NCBI GenBank assembly: GCA_918262735.1
Contig: CAKJYJ010000005.1
Coordinates: 73,099-137,098 of the forward strand
Source of the DNA: Clostridiales bacterium
Lineage (GTDB): Bacteria; Bacillota; Clostridia; Christensenellales; UBA1242
Reading direction: 5' to 3'
DNA length: 64,000 bases
Shown in pieces: positions 1,788 through 11,267 of this stretch (its first letter is position 1; each line of letters starts with the position of its first letter). The position numbers were made by a program, and so were the translations under genes. A model generated the notes under the pieces. The model ran no database searches. It was not told where the DNA came from and saw nothing but the letters and a program-made list of their open reading frames with translations.

Positions 1788-2873
1788 TTATTTGAACACT
1801 TTGTCTATAACCGCACCACCCAAGCAAACACTGTTTCCATCTGACAAGTTGTTATATAAAACAACATATTGACCAGGGGTAACTGCCCTTTGTTTTTCAT
1901 AAAATGTTACCTCAATATTATCTCCCAAAACCTTAACATGAACTTTTTGGTCTGGCTGACGATATCTAAATTTTGCATAGCAATCAAATTCGGTTTCTTG
2001 TGGTTTTTCCGGAATCCAATTAAACTTTTCAGAAATCATTGAACTAGAAAATAGTTCCTCTCCTTCCCCTTGTGAAACATATAGAATATTATTTTGCAAG
2101 TCTTTTGAAATAACAAACCATCTTTCTCCATTGCTATCAGATCTTCCACCAATTCCAAGCCCACGGCGCTGACCTAGTGTGTAATACATTAATCCATCGT
2201 GCGTGCCAACCACTCTGCCATCAAGGGTCATAATTTTGCCTTTTTTTGCTGGTAGGTATTCGCTTAGAAATTTTTTAAAATTTCTTTCACCAATAAAGCA
2301 TATTCCCGTGCTATCTTTTTTATTTGCATTAACCAACCCTAATTTTGTTGCAATTTCTCGAACTTTTGGTTTTTCAATGTCCTCTAGTGGAAACAAAACA
2401 CTTTTCAATTGTTCCTGCGAAAGCTGATTAAGAAAATATGATTGATCTTTATTTAAGTCCTTTGCCTTGCAAAGATAATACTTTCCATCTTTTTCAATTT
2501 TTTTACAGTAATGACCCGTTGCAATGTAATCTGCACCAATTTTTTTTGCAAATTCTAAAAACGGTCCAAATTTTATTTCCCTATTACACAAAACGTCTGG
2601 ATTTGGAGTTCTGCCCTTTTTGTATTCGTCCAAGAAATATTTGAACACTCTGTCGTAATATTCTTTTGCATAATTAACACTGTAGTAAGGTATGCCAATT
2701 GCATTGCAAACTCTTTTAACATCTTCGTAATCTTGTTCAGCAGTACAATTAACCGAATCCTCTTCCCAATTTATCATAAAAAGCCCAATAACCTCATGGC
2801 CCTGTTGCTTTAACAAATACGCTGCAACCGAAGAGTCAACACCACCACTAACACCAACAACAATCCTTGCCAT
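1788..2873 (-). CDS. mnmA: tRNA 2-thiouridine(34) synthase MnmA
   Basis: 361 aa. N-terminal PP-loop [11 protein letters not shown] and full-length MnmA-like sequence. Confidence 0.92.
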
Positions 2874-3349
2874 TATTTCTTATCTCCTTCCATAAAATCA
2901 ACAGCAACTGGAATTCTATACTTACTTATTGCTCCATCAATAAAATCCCACAACCATATTATTGTGTTTATTCCAATTGGAACGCTAAAATACGACATAA
3001 CCTTATCTAAATTTGGAATAATAGAACTGGTTGCGACTAAAATTATTGTTATTAACCCAAGTATTAATGCAATCACTGCTTTTACATACCTTCCAACATA
3101 AAAGTTATGTGCCCCCCAAAAACCAAGGAACCCGCACAACAATAAGAACTTTTTCTTACTTACATCCTTAGGAAATTGTTTTGCCTTAACGGTTTCATCA
3201 CCCTTTCCTGCAAGTATTAATTGTTTCGCCAGCATATTACTACCATTCTCTACTCTAGAAAAAATCAGCCCACAAGACGAGCATCTGTAAGCCGTGTAAT
3301 CATTTTTTGTGTCGCACCTAGGACACCTTTTTGTGTAATTTCTTCTCAT
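2873..3349 (-). CDS. zinc-ribbon / TM2 domain membrane protein
   Basis: CPRCDT...CSSCG zinc ribbon followed by a TM2-like [20 protein letters not shown]. Start moved to ATG 3349 ([12 protein letters not shown]); the 36-codon upstream extension in the ORF track reads through AT-rich promoter-like sequence. The stop overlaps the mnmA ATG by 1 nt. Confidence 0.7.
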
Positions 3350-3489
3350 TGTGAAAATTGTATCACATTTACACTTTATTGTCAAAAAAACAGTGAGTAT
3401 TAACAAAAAATATATAAATATATGTAAAAAATCAAAAAAAACAATTAAAAATATCACATTTTTATGATATACTTAAATGGAGGTTACAT

Positions 3490-3975
3490 ATGATAACATA
3501 TAGAATTGCAACCCAAGAAGACTTGGAAAAAATATGGAATAAAGATATTGCTAAAAACAATAATGATGAACTATGGATACGTTGGAAGGACCAATACATT
3601 TATTATAACAAAACAGGTATGGCAACAACTTTTGTTGCTAAAAATAATGATGAACCCATTGGGCAAATTACAGTTTTATTCTCGCAGGATTGTTCCGCCG
3701 TTAAGAATAGACCAATGCTTTGCGATGGTAAAACAACAGCAAATATGAACGCATTTAGAATCGATAAAAAATACGAAGGACAGGGACACATTTCAAACTT
3801 GGTAAAAATGGCAGAAAAATATGCAAAACAAAAAGGGATAGAATATTTAACAATTGGTAGCGAAGCAAAAGAAAGTAGAAATCTAGCGATATATTTGCAT
3901 TTTGGCTACTTAGAATTTGTAACAAGTTTTGTTGAAGATGATGAGCTTGTGCTATTTTATAAAAAAAGGATTTAA
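3490..3975 (+). CDS. GNAT family N-acetyltransferase
   Basis: 161 aa. Acetyl-CoA binding-type segment RIDKKYEGQGHISNLV. GGAGG RBS upstream. Confidence 0.75.
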   Translation: MITYRIATQEDLEKIWNKDIAKNNNDELWIRWKDQYIYYNKTGMATTFVAKNNDEPIGQITVLFSQDCSAVKNRPMLCDGKTTANMNAFRIDKKYEGQGHISNLVKMAEKYAKQKGIEYLTIGSEAKESRNLAIYLHFGYLEFVTSFVEDDELVLFYKKRI

Positions 3976-3990
3976 CATTAAGGAGAAAAT

Positions 3991-4290
3991 ATGAAGGTTG
4001 TAACAATTTGTGGAAGTATGCAATTTGCAAACGAAATGCAAACAATTTCCAGAACTCTCGCAAAAGATAATGGTTGGTGCGTTCTTCAATGCGTTTATGG
4101 TATTGACCCCTCCAAAACAAGCAAAGAACAGTTTGATTTATTAAAAAAAGAACACTTAAAAAGAATTGATTTGTCAGATGCTATTTATGTTGTTAATATC
4201 AATGGTTACATTGGAGATTCAACAAAATTTGAAATTGAATATGCGCAAAAAAATAAAAAAGAAATAATCTATCACGAAAGAGTAAATTAA
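3991..4290 (+). CDS. small nucleoside 2-deoxyribosyltransferase-like (NDT superfamily) protein
   Basis: 99 aa. N-terminal VTICGSMQF and C-terminal GYIGDSTKFEIEYA (Glu-containing) resemble the NDT/DNPH1-like fold. AGGAG RBS. Family assignment from memory only. Confidence 0.4.
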   Translation: MKVVTICGSMQFANEMQTISRTLAKDNGWCVLQCVYGIDPSKTSKEQFDLLKKEHLKRIDLSDAIYVVNINGYIGDSTKFEIEYAQKNKKEIIYHERVN

Positions 4291-4316
4291 AAAACCACCA
4301 AGCCTGGTGGTTTTTT
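4291..4316. terminator. bidirectional intrinsic terminator
   Basis: AAAAA-CCACCA-agcc-TGGTGG-TTTTTT between convergent genes. Confidence 0.85.
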
Positions 4317-4331
4317 AACAATAAATGTTAA

Positions 4332-4817
4332 TTAAAACTCTAAATAACTACTATTTTTGAAATGTTCTTCTCTTCTCTTTACTTCTTCTGTTTGCTGTAA
4401 GATTGGTTCTGCCAATTTTGTTGCAGCAACAATGTCACTCGTTGACATGTATTGATAGACATCTATTTCTGGATAATCGTATGGTGAATAATCGCAATGA
4501 TTATCATCTTTATAATATTTTTTTAGTGCCTTTTCAACTTGCTTTGCTTCACCTTTTAAAGATACGAATGCCCTTGTTCCTGCAATTCCATATATCTTGT
4601 TAAAATCGTATTGAATATAATCTTTTGTGTTTAGTATTTTTTTATAATCAATTCTAAACTCAACTCCGTAATCGCCACCGAGTTTTGGAATATCACACAC
4701 CTCGCCAGTCATAAGATTTTTTAATCTTGACCCATTTGTGTTTTTAACAAAAACTGATAGTTTTCGTCGCTGTAAATCATAAATCCAGCACAGCTCGCAT
4801 AACATAAAGCTTTCCAT
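4332..4817 (-). CDS. hypothetical protein
   Basis: 161 aa from ATG 4817 (MESFML...), which has a GGGAGGGG RBS 5 nt upstream. No family recognised. Confidence 0.6.
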   Translation of the reverse strand: MESFMLCELCWIYDLQRRKLSVFVKNTNGSRLKNLMTGEVCDIPKLGGDYGVEFRIDYKKILNTKDYIQYDFNKIYGIAGTRAFVSLKGEAKQVEKALKKYYKDDNHCDYSPYDYPEIDVYQYMSTSDIVAATKLAEPILQQTEEVKRREEHFKNSSYLEF

Positions 4818-5028
4818 AATTACCCCTCCCATAAAACACTAATATTGTACAACACATTTTTGCCGACGTCAATATGTGTTTTGTAATGATTTTTCAAGAT
4901 AGTATAAATAATAATATCTTCAAAAGTATTCATTTATTATTATCCATAAATCAGAAAAGTATTAAATAATACTCTGACTCTTTCTAATGGGTTATGGTAA
5001 AATAAACATTGTTTTGCGATTGGCCAAC

Positions 5029-6129
5029 TCACAATAAATCATTGATTATATAATTCAGTTGATTAAGACATGTTTCTTTAGAATACTTTTTTAACACATC
5101 CTCCCTAGCATTTGTTCCAATTTTTTTCAATATTTTTGGATCATCAATTTCATTAATACACCTTGCAAGGTCTTCGGCATCATATGTGTTAATCAAAAAA
5201 CCATTCTCTCCATTTTCAATCATCTCCTTAGGCCCAGTTGGGCAATTTGTTGAAACGACTGGCATGCCCAAAGCCATGGCTTCAAGCAGTGCATTTGGAA
5301 AACCTTCATATTTGGAAGATAAAACAAACAAATCATAATTTATCTCAACACTAAATATTTCATGAGTTTTCCCTTTTAATATTATTTGATTTTGAAGGTT
5401 TTTATTCTCAATGTATTCTTTTAATTTCGTCTTATAACGGCCATCACCATAAATATGCAAATTAATTGTTTTCCCATATTTATTTTTTAATATCTCAACA
5501 GCATCTATAAGCATTCTTTGATTTTTCTGTTCACAAAGTCTACCAATTGAAATAATATTCTTTATACTAGAATAACTTTCTTTTTTCATATTTTCAATTG
5601 CTGGGTTTACAAGATTACACACAACATAAGATTTTACATTTTTAAAATGTTTAAAATATGTTGTTTGTTCTTCATTTTGGACAATAACTACTTTACGTTT
5701 TTTTATAAGATGATTTAACAGTTTTCTAATTATTATGTTACGTTTATTTGGCTCATGCCAAGGGCTGTTTCTTATTGTTTGTGCAACAACTGTTTCCTTG
5801 GGAGCAGCAATAGCACACAAAAGATCTGAGTATACTAAAAATGGAATAATAATATCTTGTGGATTTTTATTTAGATACTGCTTTAAAATTTTACACTTCT
5901 TAAGAAATCTAACCAGCCCACTCTTTTTCTGGTAGTCTGTTAGCGATGAATATAAATAAGCCCTTTTCACATTGCTGCTTAACGGATATTCATCTTCGGT
6001 GGGATAATATGATAATAATGTTACTTCATAGCCATCATTATCGAGTAAATTTGCCCATAAACTAGCAGCTCTTTCTGCACCACCGCCACAAGCAATAACT
6101 CTTGAAACAATCATTATTCTTTTTTTCAT
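5029..6129 (-). CDS. glycosyltransferase family 4 (GT-B, GT1/GT4-type)
   Basis: C-terminal EGFPNALLEAMALGMPVVSTNCPTGPKEMI motif. Start set to ATG 6129 (MKKRIMIVSR) with GGAGA 8 nt upstream. Confidence 0.85.
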   Translation of the reverse strand: MKKRIMIVSRVIACGGGAERAASLWANLLDNDGYEVTLLSYYPTEDEYPLSSNVKRAYLYSSLTDYQKKSGLVRFLKKCKILKQYLNKNPQDIIIPFLVYSDLLCAIAAPKETVVAQTIRNSPWHEPNKRNIIIRKLLNHLIKKRKVVIVQNEEQTTYFKHFKNVKSYVVCNLVNPAIENMKKESYSSIKNIISIGRLCEQKNQRMLIDAVEILKNKYGKTINLHIYGDGRYKTKLKEYIENKNLQNQIILKGKTHEIFSVEINYDLFVLSSKYEGFPNALLEAMALGMPVVSTNCPTGPKEMIENGENGFLINTYDAEDLARCINEIDDPKILKKIGTNAREDVLKKYSKETCLNQLNYIINDLL

Positions 6130-6311
6130 AACAAATCTCCAATCTAAGGATAGCATAATCCTTGTTTAAAAGCAACAAAACACATTAGAATAATACAAAA
6201 ATAAAACCATTTTGGGACTTATAAATATTTTTATTTTTATTTGTTACAATGCACAAAAATAAGAATATCAAGACAATAATAAAAATCTTCCTCGCCATTC
6301 AGAATTGTTAC

Positions 6312-6369
6312 TGAAGATGTTCAGTGAGCAAGGAAAGCGCTGATAGGCTCCAGCGCAAATGAAATTTGC
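6312..6369. repeat. repeat core A (most diverged copy)
   Basis: Minus strand reads GCAAATTTCATTTGCGCTGGAGCCTATCAGCGCTTTCCTTGCTCACTGAACATCTTCA. Confidence 0.8.
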
Positions 6370-6424
6370 GTTTAATTTTGCAAAGCAAAATTAAAAACCT
6401 TCTTACAGGCTACAAGGGAGCCAA

Positions 6425-6482
6425 TGGAGCTGTTCAGTGAGCGGAGCGAACGCTGATAAGCTCCAGTGCAAACGTTGTTTGC
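6425..6482. repeat. repeat core B
   Basis: Minus strand reads GCAAACAACGTTTGCACTGGAGCTTATCAGCGTTCGCTCCGCTCACTGAACAGCTCCA. Confidence 0.8.
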
Positions 6483-6536
6483 TTTTGGTTTTGTAACCTA
6501 AAAATTAAAAAATCTTCTTACAAATTGCAAGAGGGT

Positions 6537-6594
6537 TGGAGATGTTCAGTGAGCGGAGCGAACGCTGATAAGCTCCAGTGCAAACGTTGTTTGC
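6537..6594. repeat. repeat core C
   Basis: Same as B except for one base near the 3' end (ACATCTCCA). Confidence 0.8.
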
Positions 6595-6648
6595 CTTTAT
6601 TTTTGCGATAATATAATAAAAATCTTCCTCGCAATTCAGAATTGTTAC

Positions 6649-6706
6649 TGGAGATGTTCAGTGAGCAAAGCGAACGCTGATAAGCTCCAGTGCAAATATT
6701 ATTTGC
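6649..6706. repeat. repeat core D
   Basis: Hairpin GCAAAT-AAT-ATTTGC (compensatory change relative to B and C). The core is followed by the GTAAC trailer, as is the tRNA. Confidence 0.8.
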
Positions 6707-6728
6707 ATTTAATTTTGCGATGCAAAAT

Positions 6729-6755
6729 TAAAAAAACTCTTGCAAAGCAAGAGTT
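6729..6755 (-). terminator. intrinsic terminator downstream of tRNA-Thr
   Basis: Minus strand: AACTCTTGC-TTT-GCAAGAGTT followed by TTTTTTT. Confidence 0.8.
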
Positions 6756-6757
6756 AC

Positions 6758-6832
6758 TGGAGCTGATGGCGGGAATCGGACCCGCGACCACCACCTTACC
6801 AAGGTGGTGCTCTACCCCTGAGCCACATCAGC
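6758..6832 (-). tRNA. tRNA-Thr (anticodon GGT), CCA encoded
   Basis: Manual cloverleaf: acceptor GCTGATG/CATCAGC, D arm GCTC-AGGGGTA-GAGC, anticodon arm CCACC-TTGGTAA-GGTGG, variable loop TGGTC, T arm GCGGG-TCCGATT-CCCGC, discriminator T, then CCA. 75 nt. Confidence 0.9.
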
Positions 6833-6893
6833 AAAATATTAAATAGTTATTGTTTTTTTTGAAAACATATCTTTTCAAAACAACAACGGTGTT

Positions 6894-6922
6894 AGTATAA
6901 TATTAATAACACTCATTGTCAA
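6894..6922 (-). promoter_or_regulatory. sigma-A type promoter for tRNA-Thr
   Basis: Minus strand: TTGACA (6922-6917), 17 nt spacer, TATACT (6899-6894), about 60 nt upstream of the tRNA 5' end. Confidence 0.6.
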
Positions 6923-6974
6923 GCAAATTTTGATTTTGTCAACTTTATAAAACCCATTTTTGCGTAATAAATAA

Positions 6975-7006
6975 AACAAAGGGCAAAGATTTTCTTTGCT
7001 CTTTAT
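6975..7006 (-). terminator. intrinsic terminator after wecB
   Basis: Minus strand: AGAGCAAAG-aaaat-CTTTGCCCT followed by a T-rich tract, immediately after the wecB stop. Confidence 0.6.
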
Positions 7007-7009
7007 TTT

Positions 7010-8140
7010 TTATTCTAAAATATCTTTGAATGCTTCAATTATGCTATCAGCGATTCGTTTGCTTGCAAGACCATCTCCATATGGATTTTGGGCAACGCTC
7101 ATTGCATTATATAACTCATTGTCGGTTAATAACCTTTTTGTTTCGTTATATATTGTTTCTTCATTTGTTCCAATAACTCTAAGGGTTCCAGCATCAACGC
7201 CCTCTGGACGCTCGGTTGTGTCCCTTAAAACTAAAACTGGTTTACCAAGGCTTGGAGCTTCTTCTTGAACCCCTCCACTATCGGTTAAAATTAAGTATGC
7301 CTTTGCCATAAAATTATGAAAATCAATTACTCCAAGTGGTTCAATTAATTTTATTCTATCGGCATTTTCATCATTGGTGAACATTTCGTATGCAAGGTCT
7401 CTAACAATTGGGTTAAGATGAACGGGATAAACAATTTTTATATCCTTAAATTCCTTTAACACCCTTTTTATTGCATTAAAAATATGCTTCATTGGTTCTC
7501 CCCAATTTTCCCTTCTGTGAGCGGTTAAAAGAACCATTCTGCTTCCCTCTGCCCAATCTAGTATTTCATTGCTGTATTCAGATGTAACTGTGTACTTTAA
7601 TGCATCTATGGCTGTGTTGCCGGTAACATAAATTGACTCTGGATTTTTTTGTTCATTTATTAAATTCTGCTTACTTAACTCTGTTGGTGAAAAGTTCATG
7701 TCTGCAAGCACTCCAACAAATTGTCTGTTTGCCTCTTCTGGGAATGGTGATTGAAGGTTATATGTTCTAAGCCCCGCTTCAACGTGCCCTATTTTTATTT
7801 TGTTATAAAACCCCGCAAGTGCACCAACAAAACTAGTTGTTGTGTCGCCATGAACTAAAATAATGTCTGGCTGAACTTCTTTTATAACCGTGTCTAACTT
7901 AACCAAAACACGGCTTGTGAGTTCGGTTAATGTTTGACCCTTTTGCATTATGTCTAAATCATAGTCTGGAACAATTTTGAAAATTTCCAAAACTTGGTCT
8001 AACATTTCTCTATGTTGCGCAGTTACACAAACAATTGTTTCAACTTCTTTTCTTTGTTTTAATTCAAGAACAAGAGGAGCCATTTTAATTGCTTCTGGTC
8101 TTGTTCCAAAAATTGTCATAACTTTAATTTTTCTTCCCAT
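7010..8140 (-). CDS. wecB: UDP-N-acetylglucosamine 2-epimerase (non-hydrolysing)
   Basis: 376 aa. MTIFGTRPEAIKMAPL...HVEAGLRT...DSGGVQEEAPSLGKPVLVLRDTTERPE, the classic WecB/MnaA signature. Confidence 0.92.
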   Translation of the reverse strand: MGRKIKVMTIFGTRPEAIKMAPLVLELKQRKEVETIVCVTAQHREMLDQVLEIFKIVPDYDLDIMQKGQTLTELTSRVLVKLDTVIKEVQPDIILVHGDTTTSFVGALAGFYNKIKIGHVEAGLRTYNLQSPFPEEANRQFVGVLADMNFSPTELSKQNLINEQKNPESIYVTGNTAIDALKYTVTSEYSNEILDWAEGSRMVLLTAHRRENWGEPMKHIFNAIKRVLKEFKDIKIVYPVHLNPIVRDLAYEMFTNDENADRIKLIEPLGVIDFHNFMAKAYLILTDSGGVQEEAPSLGKPVLVLRDTTERPEGVDAGTLRVIGTNEETIYNETKRLLTDNELYNAMSVAQNPYGDGLASKRIADSIIEAFKDILE

Positions 8141-8141
8141 A

Positions 8142-9536
8142 CTATTCCTCTGTTCCCTGTTGGTAATCTAAAACTTTATCACTGTCATTATATAATACTT
8201 CTTCGCACTCCATCTTCGTTACTTTGTGCGATGTCTTTTTCCAAGTTTTTTGATTGTGACATTTGAATAAACCAATTACTGTTATAGGTATGTAGGTAAA
8301 CGTATAAAAGATATAAGCAATCTCATCTGGTATTAATGAAATTAAAACTCTCTTTTTCTCCCACATTTTACCATCATATAAAGATGACAAAGGAACAAGT
8401 ATGTAGTAAAATAAAGTAAAATAAAATGCAATTTGTCTTATTATATACGGAACAGAATTAATTTCTAACCTAGGCATTCCTGCAATATTTCTTATAATGT
8501 TTGAAATGTCAAGACCTAGACCAATTAATAACATTACAACACCTAGGGTTAAAAATATAACCGAAGCCAAGCAGAGCATATTGTCAATCTTCCTGAATAC
8601 AGATTTTACTTTTTTTATATTAAATAAACTTAGGAATAATCTCCATTCGTACTTAAACATACAGAACCAATAGCCCTGCGCCCACCTAATCCTTTGAACG
8701 AAAGATTGTTTTACTCCCGTTGGCTTTTCATCATAAATTCTTGCGTTATAATTAAATGTTATTCTCTTTCCTTTTATGGTTGCCTGCGTTTGAATTTCTA
8801 GGTCCTCTGTAAGAGATGTGCAATGATATCCCCCAATTTCTTTTAAGAAAGATGTTGTCGTTGCAAAACCAGTTCCTCCAATACAAGCGTTCAATCCTAA
8901 TTTTTGTCTAGGATTTTGTAAAAAACCATTTGACATTCTGTAACTAACATAATACCCTCTTGCAACAATATTATTTCTATTTTTGCTATCCAAGTAACAT
9001 TGAATAAGTTCTGGTCTTTTACCCTCTTTATAACTCAAATATTGGCTGTTGATATGCTCCAATATGTTTGAATCAACAAAATTGTCTGCGTCAAAAATAA
9101 CAAACATATCGTATTTATTGTAGAACTTATCTTCTGCTTCTAACTTCTCTATCGCCCATTTTAATGCATGTGGTTTACCCTTTTTCTTTGGGTCGTTCAC
9201 ATTTCTTTCCAGAGCATAAAAATTGCTAAGCCCAAGTTCACTAATTCTTTTATTAATTTCACCAACAGTATTGTCTGCACAATTGTCTGCAATGAAATAA
9301 ACATCAAACAAATCTGGATTATATGTCATTTTTGCCAAATTATCAACTGTTGCTGCAATAACTTTTTCCTCATTGTGACATGGTACAAAAATACAAAATT
9401 TTTGTTGGTCTTTAACCAATTTATATCTTTGACGCCTTGGAAGCAATCCAATAATCATCAAAAACAAATTATATGCAATATATACAAACGTTATATAAAA
9501 TAAAACGCGATAAATACCTATAAGCACGTTAACCAT
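8142..9536 (-). CDS. membrane-embedded processive family-2 glycosyltransferase (PgaC/IcaA/cellulose-synthase-like)
   Basis: 464 aa. N-terminal TM helix, GT2 core (FVPCHNEE, FDADNF, TEDLE), the QRIRWAQG (QxxRW) motif, and about 4 C-terminal TM helices. The stop lies 1 nt from the wecB start. Confidence 0.8.
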   Translation of the reverse strand: MVNVLIGIYRVLFYITFVYIAYNLFLMIIGLLPRRQRYKLVKDQQKFCIFVPCHNEEKVIAATVDNLAKMTYNPDLFDVYFIADNCADNTVGEINKRISELGLSNFYALERNVNDPKKKGKPHALKWAIEKLEAEDKFYNKYDMFVIFDADNFVDSNILEHINSQYLSYKEGKRPELIQCYLDSKNRNNIVARGYYVSYRMSNGFLQNPRQKLGLNACIGGTGFATTTSFLKEIGGYHCTSLTEDLEIQTQATIKGKRITFNYNARIYDEKPTGVKQSFVQRIRWAQGYWFCMFKYEWRLFLSLFNIKKVKSVFRKIDNMLCLASVIFLTLGVVMLLIGLGLDISNIIRNIAGMPRLEINSVPYIIRQIAFYFTLFYYILVPLSSLYDGKMWEKKRVLISLIPDEIAYIFYTFTYIPITVIGLFKCHNQKTWKKTSHKVTKMECEEVLYNDSDKVLDYQQGTEE

Positions 9537-9636
9537 TTACTATTTCTCCTAAATACGCAATTGCTATTATTACACTTATGTCGAAAAATGTCAAGGTTTA
9601 ATGGAAAAAATATATATTTCTAATATATATACAAAA

Positions 9637-9674
9637 ATATTATGCATCACAAAAACTGATGTGATGCATAATAT
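9637..9674 (-). terminator. strong hairpin / terminator after the CotH-like gene
   Basis: 15-bp perfect stem: ATATTATGCATCACA (9637-9651) pairs with TGTGATGCATAATAT (9660-9674). A T-rich tract follows on the minus strand. Confidence 0.65.
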
Positions 9675-9752
9675 TGCCATGAATAATAATCTCTAATAAT
9701 ATTTGTTTTTGGTAAAAACTCATATTTGTAAGCAAATTTCAATTAAAAAACC

Positions 9753-11267
9753 TTATTCTTGTATTGTTATAACTTCCTCGTCTTGTTCGTCCGTTATAAA
9801 GTGAGAGAATAAAAAGTCCCTTCTTGCTTCCAAAAATTCAACAAGCCAATCTGCAGCTTCTTTTTGCGTCTTTGCGTTTTTATATTCTTGTGATGTATGT
9901 TCTTTATCCGCATATGTTAAACATTTTTTCCACTTAATATAATTTCTTTCAAATAAGGTTGAACAAACATTAGAGTATGTATCAACCAATTGTATTGCGC
10001 CCTCAAAAACTTCTTCATTTTTGATATCATTTATTCTTTCTTTTACCAAATCCATAAACCAATTCTGATTACAGAACAGTATTAACCACGGATTAATGTT
10101 TTTAATAACATATTCATTTTGCTTAGCACACGTATAGAACCCATCCAAATTGTACTTGCCTTGACCAAAAGCCCAATCAAAATCCCAAGGTGCTTGGAAT
10201 GTTAATTTTTTGTTTCCTCGGGCACCAAAATCAAATGACATATAAAAACTAGACCAGCCAACATCAATATCTTCGCATATTTCATGAAGAATAAACATAT
10301 CCACTAATGAATTTACATCAATAATGTTACCAACCGCATCAAACACTGACTGGATGTTGCTATCTTCAACAATTTCGTTATTTTCATTAATTGTTAAATA
10401 TGCCTCGTTCGTGTGGTCGTTAAACACCGCATCATAGACAACATCCCAAACGTTTTGAAGATAACTATTGGCAAACTGTTTTTGTTCTTCCGAATATATA
10501 TCCGATTTAATAACATAATGCTTTTCAAAATCTTCCAATCTGGCAGTTTCTCCGCCAATAAATTGCAAATTGTCATACTCTATTTCAAAATAGTTTTCCT
10601 CATCAATGTAATATGTGTCCATTTCCAAGAGATACCCGATATCTGTTCCCTCATAATTTTTTTCTGGCTCGGTGATGTTTACTCTCTTTTTATTAACCTG
10701 TTGTTGTTCGGCAAGTAAGTATATTCCTTGATAAAAATTATTAATGTAAACTTCAACAAATTTATAGTCGCTAACATAATACCCATTGGTTCCTAAAATT
10801 TGTTGTGCCAAGTAAAATGCGGTTGCATTTTTTAACATTGATTTATCTGTGTACTCTGCAAGCAAAACCCAACTTTTTGCCTTTAGATTATCATTTAGCC
10901 CAAGCATTGATTGTTTTTGGTCGAATTTTATTCTATATGGCTTTTTATCGTACCTGGCAGTACCATTACCGCGAACTTTAATTTGTGCACTGGCATCGGT
11001 TATATTCTGCTCTTCCACGTTTGATATAACCGATATTTCACATGTTGAATATTCTGCTGTAATTGCTTCCTCTTGAGTTTTAACACTTACAATCGGAAAA
11101 GATAAAAATCCATCCTCGTTAATAATTAAATCAATATTTTCTGTTCGAGCATCCGTCCATGTGTGCTCAAATATATCTCCAATATTGTATTGTGCTTTTT
11201 CACAGCCGGCAAAAAGAGTAAAAACTGATATTAGCATTATTATTAAAAAATTTCGAGATTTTTTCAT
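9753..11267 (-). CDS. CotH kinase-family lipoprotein
   Basis: 504 aa. Lipobox LFAG|C at residue 22. CotH-like block DKKPYRIKF...WVLLAEYTDKSMLKNATAFYLAQ...VEVYINNFYQGIYLLAEQ. Confidence 0.7.
   Translation of the reverse strand: MKKSRNFLIIMLISVFTLFAGCEKAQYNIGDIFEHTWTDARTENIDLIINEDGFLSFPIVSVKTQEEAITAEYSTCEISVISNVEEQNITDASAQIKVRGNGTARYDKKPYRIKFDQKQSMLGLNDNLKAKSWVLLAEYTDKSMLKNATAFYLAQQILGTNGYYVSDYKFVEVYINNFYQGIYLLAEQQQVNKKRVNITEPEKNYEGTDIGYLLEMDTYYIDEENYFEIEYDNLQFIGGETARLEDFEKHYVIKSDIYSEEQKQFANSYLQNVWDVVYDAVFNDHTNEAYLTINENNEIVEDSNIQSVFDAVGNIIDVNSLVDMFILHEICEDIDVGWSSFYMSFDFGARGNKKLTFQAPWDFDWAFGQGKYNLDGFYTCAKQNEYVIKNINPWLILFCNQNWFMDLVKERINDIKNEEVFEGAIQLVDTYSNVCSTLFERNYIKWKKCLTYADKEHTSQEYKNAKTQKEAADWLVEFLEARRDFLFSHFITDEQDEEVITIQE

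Follow-up and report, generated by a model that had tools for sequence, protein, structure and literature searches.

A tandem array in register with a tRNA-Thr gene

We describe here a tandem array of four short modules behind the 3′ end of a tRNA-Thr(GGT) gene in a Clostridiales assembly (GCA_918262735.1, contig CAKJYJ010000005.1, positions 73,099 to 137,098). This stretch of 64,000 nt is referred to as the window, and positions are counted from its first letter. The tRNA-Thr gene, on the minus strand, is the single tRNA found in the region by ARAGORN and Infernal. The repeats represent a genuine and conserved family of elements, previously uncatalogued, which is tied to tRNA-Thr in uncultured Clostridia. 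Homologous loci from other genomes and contigs are given as L numbers.

Counted from the tRNA, the modules are D, C, B and A. Tandem Repeats Finder (TRF) reported 4.1 copies with a period of 112 nt between 6280 and 6734 (score 426). An earlier reading of the sequence alone (the original prediction) had placed four blocks of 58 nt at 6312–6369, 6425–6482, 6537–6594 and 6649–6706, in register with tRNA-Thr. This arrangement was recovered exactly by script, TRF and ARAGORN, with offsets of 113, 112 and 112 nt between blocks and then 109 nt to the tRNA 3′ end. The blocks are indeed GC-rich within AT-rich spacers (G+C of 0.43–0.53 and 0.26–0.35, respectively, compared to 0.33 for the window), and the proposed identity of B and C was found as a run of 52 identical nt. 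Units A and D differ at 10 of 58 core positions whereas their flanks are nearly identical; the homology claimed for these flanks holds for both spacer segments, X and Y. A degenerate 35-nt core pattern matched four times in the window, where no match was expected.

The tRNA occupies the slot of a core, since the sequence that follows each core is homologous to the trailer and terminator of the tRNA itself. The tRNA-Thr 3′ end (...ATCAGCTCCA) recurs in both arms of every core, and the GTAAC trailer after CCA, common to A, D and the tRNA as had been noted, was read directly. On the minus strand, the tRNA terminator sits where each core is followed by a degraded hairpin; in unit D, for example, spacer X is homologous to the tRNA trailer plus terminator, with its hairpin degraded. 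A hairpin and T-run had been predicted on this strand after every core. This could not be maintained: the scan detected such a terminator for the tRNA only (6755–6735). In the orientation leading into the array, the sole strong promoter match is the site at 6894–6922.

Two further observations concern this region. A short palindrome, CAATTC-A-GAATTG, lies in the spacers at 6630–6645 (before D, perfect) and at 6293–6308 (before A, with one mismatch). In addition, the T-loop of the tRNA-Thr(GGT) (6774–6780) reads TCCGATT, with C at position 55 (plus-strand 6779). This position of tRNA is almost universally U (pseudouridine 55). C55 is also present in strains L028 and L029, and the tRNA-Thr genes of L002, L003, L018 and L038 carry the usual TTCG or TTCA.

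The module carries two near-copies of the tRNA gene end in inverted orientation

Comparison across genomes replaced the 58-nt block of the original prediction by two parts: a 43-nt imperfect palindrome, the core, which is the conserved unit (CTGGAGCTGTTCAG-N15-CTGATAAGCTCCAG on the window plus strand), and a separate small hairpin directly after it, P3. Compared with the final 11 bp of the tRNA-Thr gene, each arm of the palindrome has 10 of 11 positions in common: the gene ends in CTGGAGCT-GA-T, the left arm reads CTGGAGCT-GT-T, and the right arm, once reverse-complemented, CTGGAGCT-TA-T. The palindrome is thus a pair of near-copies of this gene end, inverted relative to each other, around a variable centre, and it is by these copies that the array is tied to the tRNA in sequence. 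The core end, CAGCTCCAG, has the 3′ end of a tRNA: (A)CAGCTCCA in the core and (T)CAGCTCCA in the tRNA share 8–9 identical nt, with variants CATCTCCA in C and D and CATCTTCA in A. Units start and end with CAGCTCCA(G).

When folded, the core forms an 8-bp stem, a 2×2 internal loop, a stem of 6 positions (one of which, column 17, shows all four bases) and an 11-nt tip. The CCA at its 3′ end pairs with an internal UGG inside this one hairpin. The core is conserved in sequence, including the bases of the internal loop and most of those of the apical loop.

P3 varies in sequence and keeps its pairing. Its stems across loci are GCAAAC/GTTTGC, GCAAAT/ATTTGC, GCGAAC/GTTCGC, GACGAAT/ATTCGTC, CATGAAAA/TTTTCATG and GCAAGAG/CTCTTGC, with compensatory changes at four of seven pairs. 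The double change from GCAAAC/GTTTGC to GCAAAT/ATTTGC, pointed out earlier as compensatory, was read directly and is borne out. P3 is absent from three of the 21 copies.

On the tRNA-sense strand, a module is composed of a terminator-type hairpin, an AT-rich hairpin, P3 and then the 43-bp palindrome. Modules are about 64–134 bp long and non-coding. The layout from the tRNA to the nearest core (tRNA end, terminator hairpin, AT-rich hairpin, P3, core) is common to nine loci, over 103–127 nt. The features of the window are listed in Table 1.

Table 1. Features of the tRNA-Thr array, with positions in the window
Feature	Position	Strand	Basis or remark
tRNA-Thr(GGT), anchor of the array	6758–6832	minus	ARAGORN; Infernal, Rfam RF00005 at 69.1 bits
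Promoter-like site for the tRNA, TTGACA-17-TATACT	6894–6922	minus	promoter match
Intrinsic terminator of the tRNA, AACTCTTGC-TTT-GCAAGAGTT then T7	6735–6755	minus	terminator scan; slot alignment
Entire array, four modules of about 112 nt	6276–6757		TRF
Core D, proximal to the tRNA	6648–6690		covariance model R1, 70.7 bits
Core C	6536–6578		R1, 66.5 bits
Core B	6424–6466		R1, 69.3 bits
Core A, most distal and most degenerate	6311–6353		R1, 54.6 bits
P3 of unit D, GCAAAT-ATT-ATTTGC	6692–6706		
P3 of unit C, GCAAAC-GTT-GTTTGC then CTTTATTTTT, terminator-like	6580–6594	plus	terminator scan
P3 of unit B, then TTTTGGTTTT, terminator-like	6468–6482	plus	terminator scan
P3 of unit A, GCAAAT-GAA-ATTTGC	6355–6369	plus	terminator scan
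Third, AT-rich hairpin of unit D, TTTAATTTTGC-GAT-GCAAAATTAAA	6708–6732		folding, alignment
Third hairpin of unit A, stem as in D, loop AAA for GAT	6371–6395		folding, alignment
Spacer X of unit D	6613–6647		35/36 identical to 6276–6311 of unit A

Cores are found next to tRNA-Thr

We scanned a collection of 185,579 species genomes (one per species) and one metagenome collection with the core pattern. In all, 21 cores were found in 10 loci, all of them in uncultured Clostridia or on metagenome contigs. The species genomes provided three loci (L001–L003), all in metagenome-assembled genomes (MAGs) of uncultured Clostridia, and the metagenomes six true loci (L005, L014, L015, L018, L023 and L026) amid chance matches in GC-rich contigs. 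The linkage to tRNA-Thr is exclusive. In nine of the ten loci, no more than about 150 nt separate a core from the 3′ end of either a tRNA-Thr gene (GGT or CGT) or a displaced 3′ half of such a gene; the contig of the tenth, L005, ends too soon to judge. The neighbour is a tRNA-Thr gene in the window, L002 and L026 (GGT) and in L003 and L018 (CGT). The proximal modules of L003 (CGT) and L014 (GGT) are homologous over their full length even though the two tRNAs are only about 75% identical; the whole module is therefore shared, not just the palindrome.

In L001, L014, L023 and L015 (twice), the modules adjoin instead a displaced tRNA-Thr 3′ half abutting a foreign junction in the anticodon loop. 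The DNA at these junctions is prophage-like, with a Bro-N protein and, further in, an IS3-type transposase. L015 has a pair of modules and a tRNA 3′ half in the interval that leads from the remnant of one element to the arm of another. Such an arrangement would be expected of modules carried on an element arm, and it lends partial direct support to the recombination-linked reading discussed below. The 1.3-kb remnant between the modules holds a Bro-N pseudogene and a second open reading frame (ORF) which, by eye, we take to be NUDIX-like. L023 resembles what a deletion between repeated modules would make of this locus.

The prophage-like elements of these four loci are related to each other. 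The junction itself, read in L001 (1–440), L014, L015 (8690–10020 and from 10270) and L023 (8690–11100), is ...CCTTACCAAGA/ACGAGCCCT..., the slash marking the break. Direct repeats TTGACAGCAA and a Bro-N gene lie past it. Two such junctions stand in tandem in L015, and the L023 element carries the IS3-family transposase inside.

No further core was detected in the window or in any fetched locus with the covariance model R1, built from the 21 copies. When three mismatches were allowed, the core pattern again gave four matches in the 64-kb window, all within the array, and each of the three MAGs has one locus only. The repeats are thus not a genome-wide family of the REP (repetitive extragenic palindrome) type, in line with the original prediction; REP/BIME (bacterial interspersed mosaic element) and MITE (miniature inverted-repeat transposable element) repeats were rejected on the same counts. 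The whole array had no blastn match in INPHARED phages or PLSDB plasmids, and four scans of IMG/VR viral contigs (strict core, loose core, prophage junction, tRNA 3′ part) gave no match. The tRNA 3′ part was found only once in the window, where another copy would have pointed to the far boundary of an island.

The array is an insertion and turns over from the CCA end

The genes flanking the array in the window encode a GT4 glycosyltransferase (Pfam) and a UDP-GlcNAc 2-epimerase (precomputed Pfam, source names); a further neighbour is presumably a GT2 glycosyltransferase, from reading its ORF and from the Pfam matches of its L032 homologue. In L037 and L038, whose glycosyltransferase is 64% identical to the window GT4, the order tRNA-Thr(GGT) then GT4 is kept with a spacer of 171 nt carrying one terminator and no core, compared to 601 nt in the window. 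Since the same gene order exists there without the module, the array is an insertion.

Turnover is also seen between close strains. L028 and L029, of the same species as the window, share with it an epimerase 99% identical, DNA flanks 95.6% identical and the same tRNA, and homology stops 4 nt after CCA, where unrelated DNA takes the place of the array. This replacement DNA (2026–2738 in L028), which may have arrived as an element integrating at the tRNA 3′ end, carries another terminator, repeated tgcatataaattgcata motifs and, on the opposite strand, an ORF resembling a DEDDh exonuclease; the L028 contig stops short of the far junction of the insert. L002 and L026 have identical tRNAs and upstream DNA, and their modules differ in kind and order from 4–5 nt after CCA. 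Over all comparisons, strains diverge 0–5 nt after CCA. Two spacers of L002 are identical.

Epimerase homologues were informative for synteny at 99%, 89% and 86% identity; those at 72–73% identity have no tRNA-Thr downstream and are uninformative. In L030 (89%), only the 5′ half of tRNA-Thr is present (about 1606–1644), broken just after the anticodon loop with unrelated sequence beyond, which may represent another integration junction or result from a break in the assembly. In L031 (86%, 1476–1761), the epimerase gene has no tRNA-Thr after it, and therefore the tRNA gene may itself be a variable insert between cell-wall polysaccharide genes.

Beyond the arrays, the neighbour genes differ in every locus: GT4, an SDR-like protein, a leucine-rich repeat (LRR) protein, a metallo-beta-lactamase-fold protein and, as we read it from sequence, presumably Hsp20.

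The copies decay mostly with distance from the tRNA. R1 scores drop from proximal to distal in the window, L001, L002, L015 and L023, for instance from 71.9 to 63.4 bits in L001 and through 73.3, 73.3 and 72.7 to 68.9 bits in L002. Distal copies are cut short in L001, where the left arm is missing, and in L018. Terminators on the sense strand are intact only beside the tRNA. In L018 (about 1075–1110, minus-strand view), a right half-core CGCTGATAGGCTCCAG and a degraded P3 stand a few bases past the stop codon of the neighbour gene, which we take from reading to be a short-chain dehydrogenase gene; the breakpoint is near the centre of the palindrome.

The core lacks RNA-type covariation

Covariation, proposed as a check of an RNA function, gave opposite answers for the two hairpins. 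The compensatory changes of P3 are real, whereas 13 of the 14 core pairs show none, the outermost pair being the single one to vary on both sides. Template switching between arms is another way in which short perfect DNA palindromes can acquire compensatory changes. No −35/−10 elements were found at a fixed distance upstream of the 21 cores compared, and some cores are as close as 21 nt to each other. The plus-strand terminators put forward in the original prediction were detected for the small hairpins of A, B and C, with a T-rich tail, and not for that of D. Across loci, P3 stems are weak (−5 to −9 kcal/mol for most copies) and many have no T-run after them. Folding z-scores were −3.9 to −4.9 in three of four window units.

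The two strands do not fold equally well. In 19 of 21 copies, the better fold is that of the plus strand, which is antisense to the tRNA. It forms 267 of 294 standard pairs including 23 G-U, compared to 247 of 294 with 3 G-U on the minus strand; the G-U asymmetry stems from a small number of independent events, namely those at the outermost pair, at column 17 and at column 38 (A/G).

Differences between copies are concentrated in hairpin loops. Between A (6270–6402) and D (6607–6740), the loops of the three hairpins differ at 9 of 17 positions and the rest, including the unpaired spacer, at 5 of 105 (Fisher p = 3e-6). In L014, L015 and L023, the proximal modules show four differences in the hairpin region (core to terminator), one per hairpin loop. 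Either the unit is constrained outside these hypervariable loops, or the loops mutate faster.

Comparison with known families and systems

The expectation that the repeats fall into no recognised family was confirmed. At gathering scores, Rfam gave the tRNA only for the whole window, and in E-value mode the region 5900–7200 and seven other loci gave chance-level matches, none centred on cores. A tRNA or tRNA-like RNA was rejected: ARAGORN found 6758–6832 only, no tRNA-clan model matched the repeats at cmscan E ≤ 10, and a cloverleaf, which could not be folded in the initial reading either, was found neither by ARAGORN nor by Rfam models. A CRISPR array was rejected since the spacers are homologous to each other and to the tRNA trailer (cas genes were not examined), and a type III toxin-antitoxin system (ToxI-like) since no toxin neighbour is conserved and downstream genes differ per locus (the PADLOC library was not run). 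LexA (Cheo) boxes, dif/Xer sites, k-turns and sarcin-ricin motifs were set aside as presumably irrelevant, their defining features being absent as judged from sequence. Nothing relevant on tRNA-Thr-linked tandem hairpins came up in a literature search.

Tandem multicopy small RNA (sRNA) genes such as Listeria LhrC1-4 resemble the array in that units of about 110 nt follow one another head to tail and combine a hairpin with a terminator-like one. In contrast to these genes, the array units have no conserved promoter of their own, some lack the terminator hairpin, and the main hairpin is without covariation. Together with the 21-nt spacers and the restriction of terminator-like P3 on the plus strand to A, B and C, this sets the array apart from such gene clusters. 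REP/BIME and MITEs are GC-richer imperfect palindromes in intergenic DNA, sometimes in tandem clusters downstream of genes. Unlike them, the core occurs at one locus per genome, always at tRNA-Thr, and the unit has no terminal inverted repeats. Displaced tRNA 3′ fragments mark the far end (attR) of genomic islands and prophages; the core likewise repeats part of a tRNA 3′ end downstream of an intact gene. However, it shares 8–11 nt only, twice and inverted, and is conserved between genomes. True displaced tRNA-Thr 3′ halves adjoin the modules in L001, L014, L015 and L023.

A close parallel in organisation is provided by cis-mobilizable elements (CIMEs), in which decayed integrative elements accrete in tandem at att sites (PMC5704250). 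As in CIMEs, the array lies at the 3′ end of an integrase target gene, its units are bounded by direct repeats of that end (CAGCTCCA(G)), prophage junctions occur in the same tRNA in four loci, and the tandem arrays have decayed members and turn over between strains without recombination genes of their own. Unlike CIMEs, the units are only 64–134 bp with no gene remnants in the window, the att-like repeat is inside a 43-bp palindrome, and no cognate integrase or parent element was identified.

Integron attC arrays show another kind of likeness. Their sites carry an R box RYYYAAC paired with GTTRRRY (PMC5027507). Here as in attC arrays, imperfect-palindrome sites pile up beside one fixed site and junctions share one short sequence. 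The core hairpin has an outer stem, an unpaired 2×2 spacer, an inner stem in which one position does not pair, and a tip that varies, and its conservation is strand-asymmetric. This resemblance in layout would be one of form only. RYYYAAC/GTTRRRY is absent from the core, in which GTT at columns 11–13 has no AAC partner and the outer stem is CTGGAGCT/AGCTCCAG. attC sites are also 57 nt or more, compared to 43 nt for the core. The units contain no conserved ORF, the anchor is a tRNA gene end, the hosts are Clostridia, and no intI was found among the flanking genes examined (window 2873–11267; Pfam on four of these ORFs). With the consensus, the ORFs and intI all lacking, the likeness to integrons is one of analogy, not of membership.

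A probable link to recombination, and the alternatives

The modules are most likely recombination-linked DNA rather than tRNA-like RNA genes. Among the three options left by the original prediction, namely tRNA-like RNAs, a tandem sRNA family and protein-binding or recombination sites, recombination sites fit best with the empty site, the divergence after CCA and the prophage junctions at tRNA-Thr. The two RNA options were not supported, there being no cloverleaf, no conserved promoter, gaps of 21 nt, no core covariation and decay of distal copies. We tentatively favour the view that the repeats are DNA-level, att-site-like mini-modules accreted and amplified at the tRNA-Thr 3′ end. The 3′ ends of tRNA genes are a classical integrase target. 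The module, not ancestral here, has inserted at this end. Further copies would then have joined it or multiplied in tandem behind the tRNA, made possible by the direct repeat of 8–9 nt, CAGCTCCA(G), with which both the tRNA and the core end; older distal copies would decay. The palindrome may be a functional DNA site, most likely for binding or synapsis by a recombinase of tRNA-Thr-specific integrative elements acting in trans. Each unit would in that case represent either a cis-mobilizable att-type element cut down to about 100 bp or the scar that such an element left behind.

Several points weigh against this scheme. Replication slippage between short direct repeats could build arrays without a recombinase. 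No recombinase gene lies beside the arrays in the window flanks, L002 or L003; no core was found in IMG/VR, INPHARED or PLSDB, nor any intact parent element with a core at its end. L026 is an exception to the decay gradient. The identity of cores across loci is inflated, since loci were found with a pattern fixing 19–24 of 42 compared positions. The better folding of the plus strand and its excess of G-U pairs are not predicted by a purely double-stranded site. Finally, the variation of the core is three-periodic (minor-allele counts of 33, 10 and 8 by column modulo 3), for which the DNA-module model has no explanation.

The strand asymmetry is what would be expected if the units encoded plus-strand sRNAs, antisense to the tRNA. 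Each transcript, of about 60–70 nt, would consist of the 43-nt hairpin followed by P3 as intrinsic terminator, with a 5′ arm (UGGAGCUG) complementary to the tRNA-Thr 3′ end. The z-scores, the compensatory changes of P3 and its T-rich tail in A, B and C are also in favour. We nevertheless regard these sRNAs as unlikely, given the missing promoter at a fixed upstream distance, the L002 units 21 nt apart and without P3, the core without covariation, the weak P3 stems often without T-run, and the decay of distal copies; template switching could moreover account for the P3 compensation. On the opposite strand, read-through from the tRNA promoter, the sole strong one, which points into the array, might yield hairpins in the tRNA trailer with a 3′ end ACAGCUCCA. 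After tRNA-type end processing, these would be minihelix mimics of the tRNA-Thr acceptor end (G1-C72, C2-G71, U3-A70, discriminator U, CCA). The core stands in the tRNA-equivalent slot, with the same GTAAC trailer in A and D, and is followed in every unit by a terminator-type hairpin homologous to that of the tRNA. It also has a central T-loop-like AGCG-TTCGCTC-CGCT, in which G-to-A variants (units A and D of the window, L003 and L018) keep G-U pairing only on the sense strand. However, there is a good terminator between the tRNA and the first core, folding is poorer on the sense strand, which has C-A mismatches where the plus strand has G-U, no tRNA model matches, and the T-arm-like pairing and the TCAG/CTGA helix are mutually exclusive. 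Such mimics appear improbable.

The conservation of the core at the sequence level, with arms of about 14 bp and a variable centre, and the dense hairpins and bidirectional terminator-like elements would also suit a host protein-binding palindrome unrelated to mobility (an operator, insulator or roadblock), its copies arising by slippage. The module is, however, missing from a syntenic relative and from a strain with a 99% identical neighbour gene, and is therefore dispensable; moreover, downstream genes differ between loci and homologous modules lie behind different isoacceptor genes, which makes such a site quite unlikely. The three-periodic variation could instead point to a coding remnant. 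The sense strand of the core reads GAYQRSLRSLNSS, a frame in which every frequent change is synonymous (GCT/GCC, CGT/CGC, CTT/CTC/CTG, TCN with four bases, AGC/AGT). In the same phase, the plus strand holds a 10-codon micro-ORF with two stops (NTG GAG CTG TTC AGN GAG CGR AGC GAR CGC TGA TAR, ending in TGA-TAR). The sense frame, though, lacks a start codon and any conserved extension, and the motif GAYQRSLRSLNSS in triplicate had no match at E ≤ 10 among 5.8 billion proteins. The plus-frame ‘start’ is ATG, TTG, CTG, GTG, TGG or GAG with no consistent ribosome-binding site before it, and the periodicity rests on about 25 independent events counted by hand (chi-square p about 0.02). Coding function of either kind is highly improbable. 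There is, lastly, a slim chance that the arrays record a site-specific recombination platform of Clostridia, so far unrecognised and dependent on hairpins or palindromes, in which, by analogy with integrons, the tRNA-Thr 3′ end would act like attI. Mini-cassettes with a terminal attC-like palindrome imitating this end would then be inserted beside it and stockpiled by a recombinase whose gene lies elsewhere, the most recent additions being those closest to the tRNA.

Prophages and genomic islands land mainly at tRNA genes, and the small non-coding debris found there is rarely examined. If the modules at the tRNA-Thr 3′ end are indeed sites for a recombinase, no smaller cis-mobilizable unit would so far have been seen at a tRNA gene, and they would provide a sequence handle for cognate integrases in gut or environmental Clostridia. 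If they are transcribed instead, they would constitute a new RNA family tied to tRNA-Thr.

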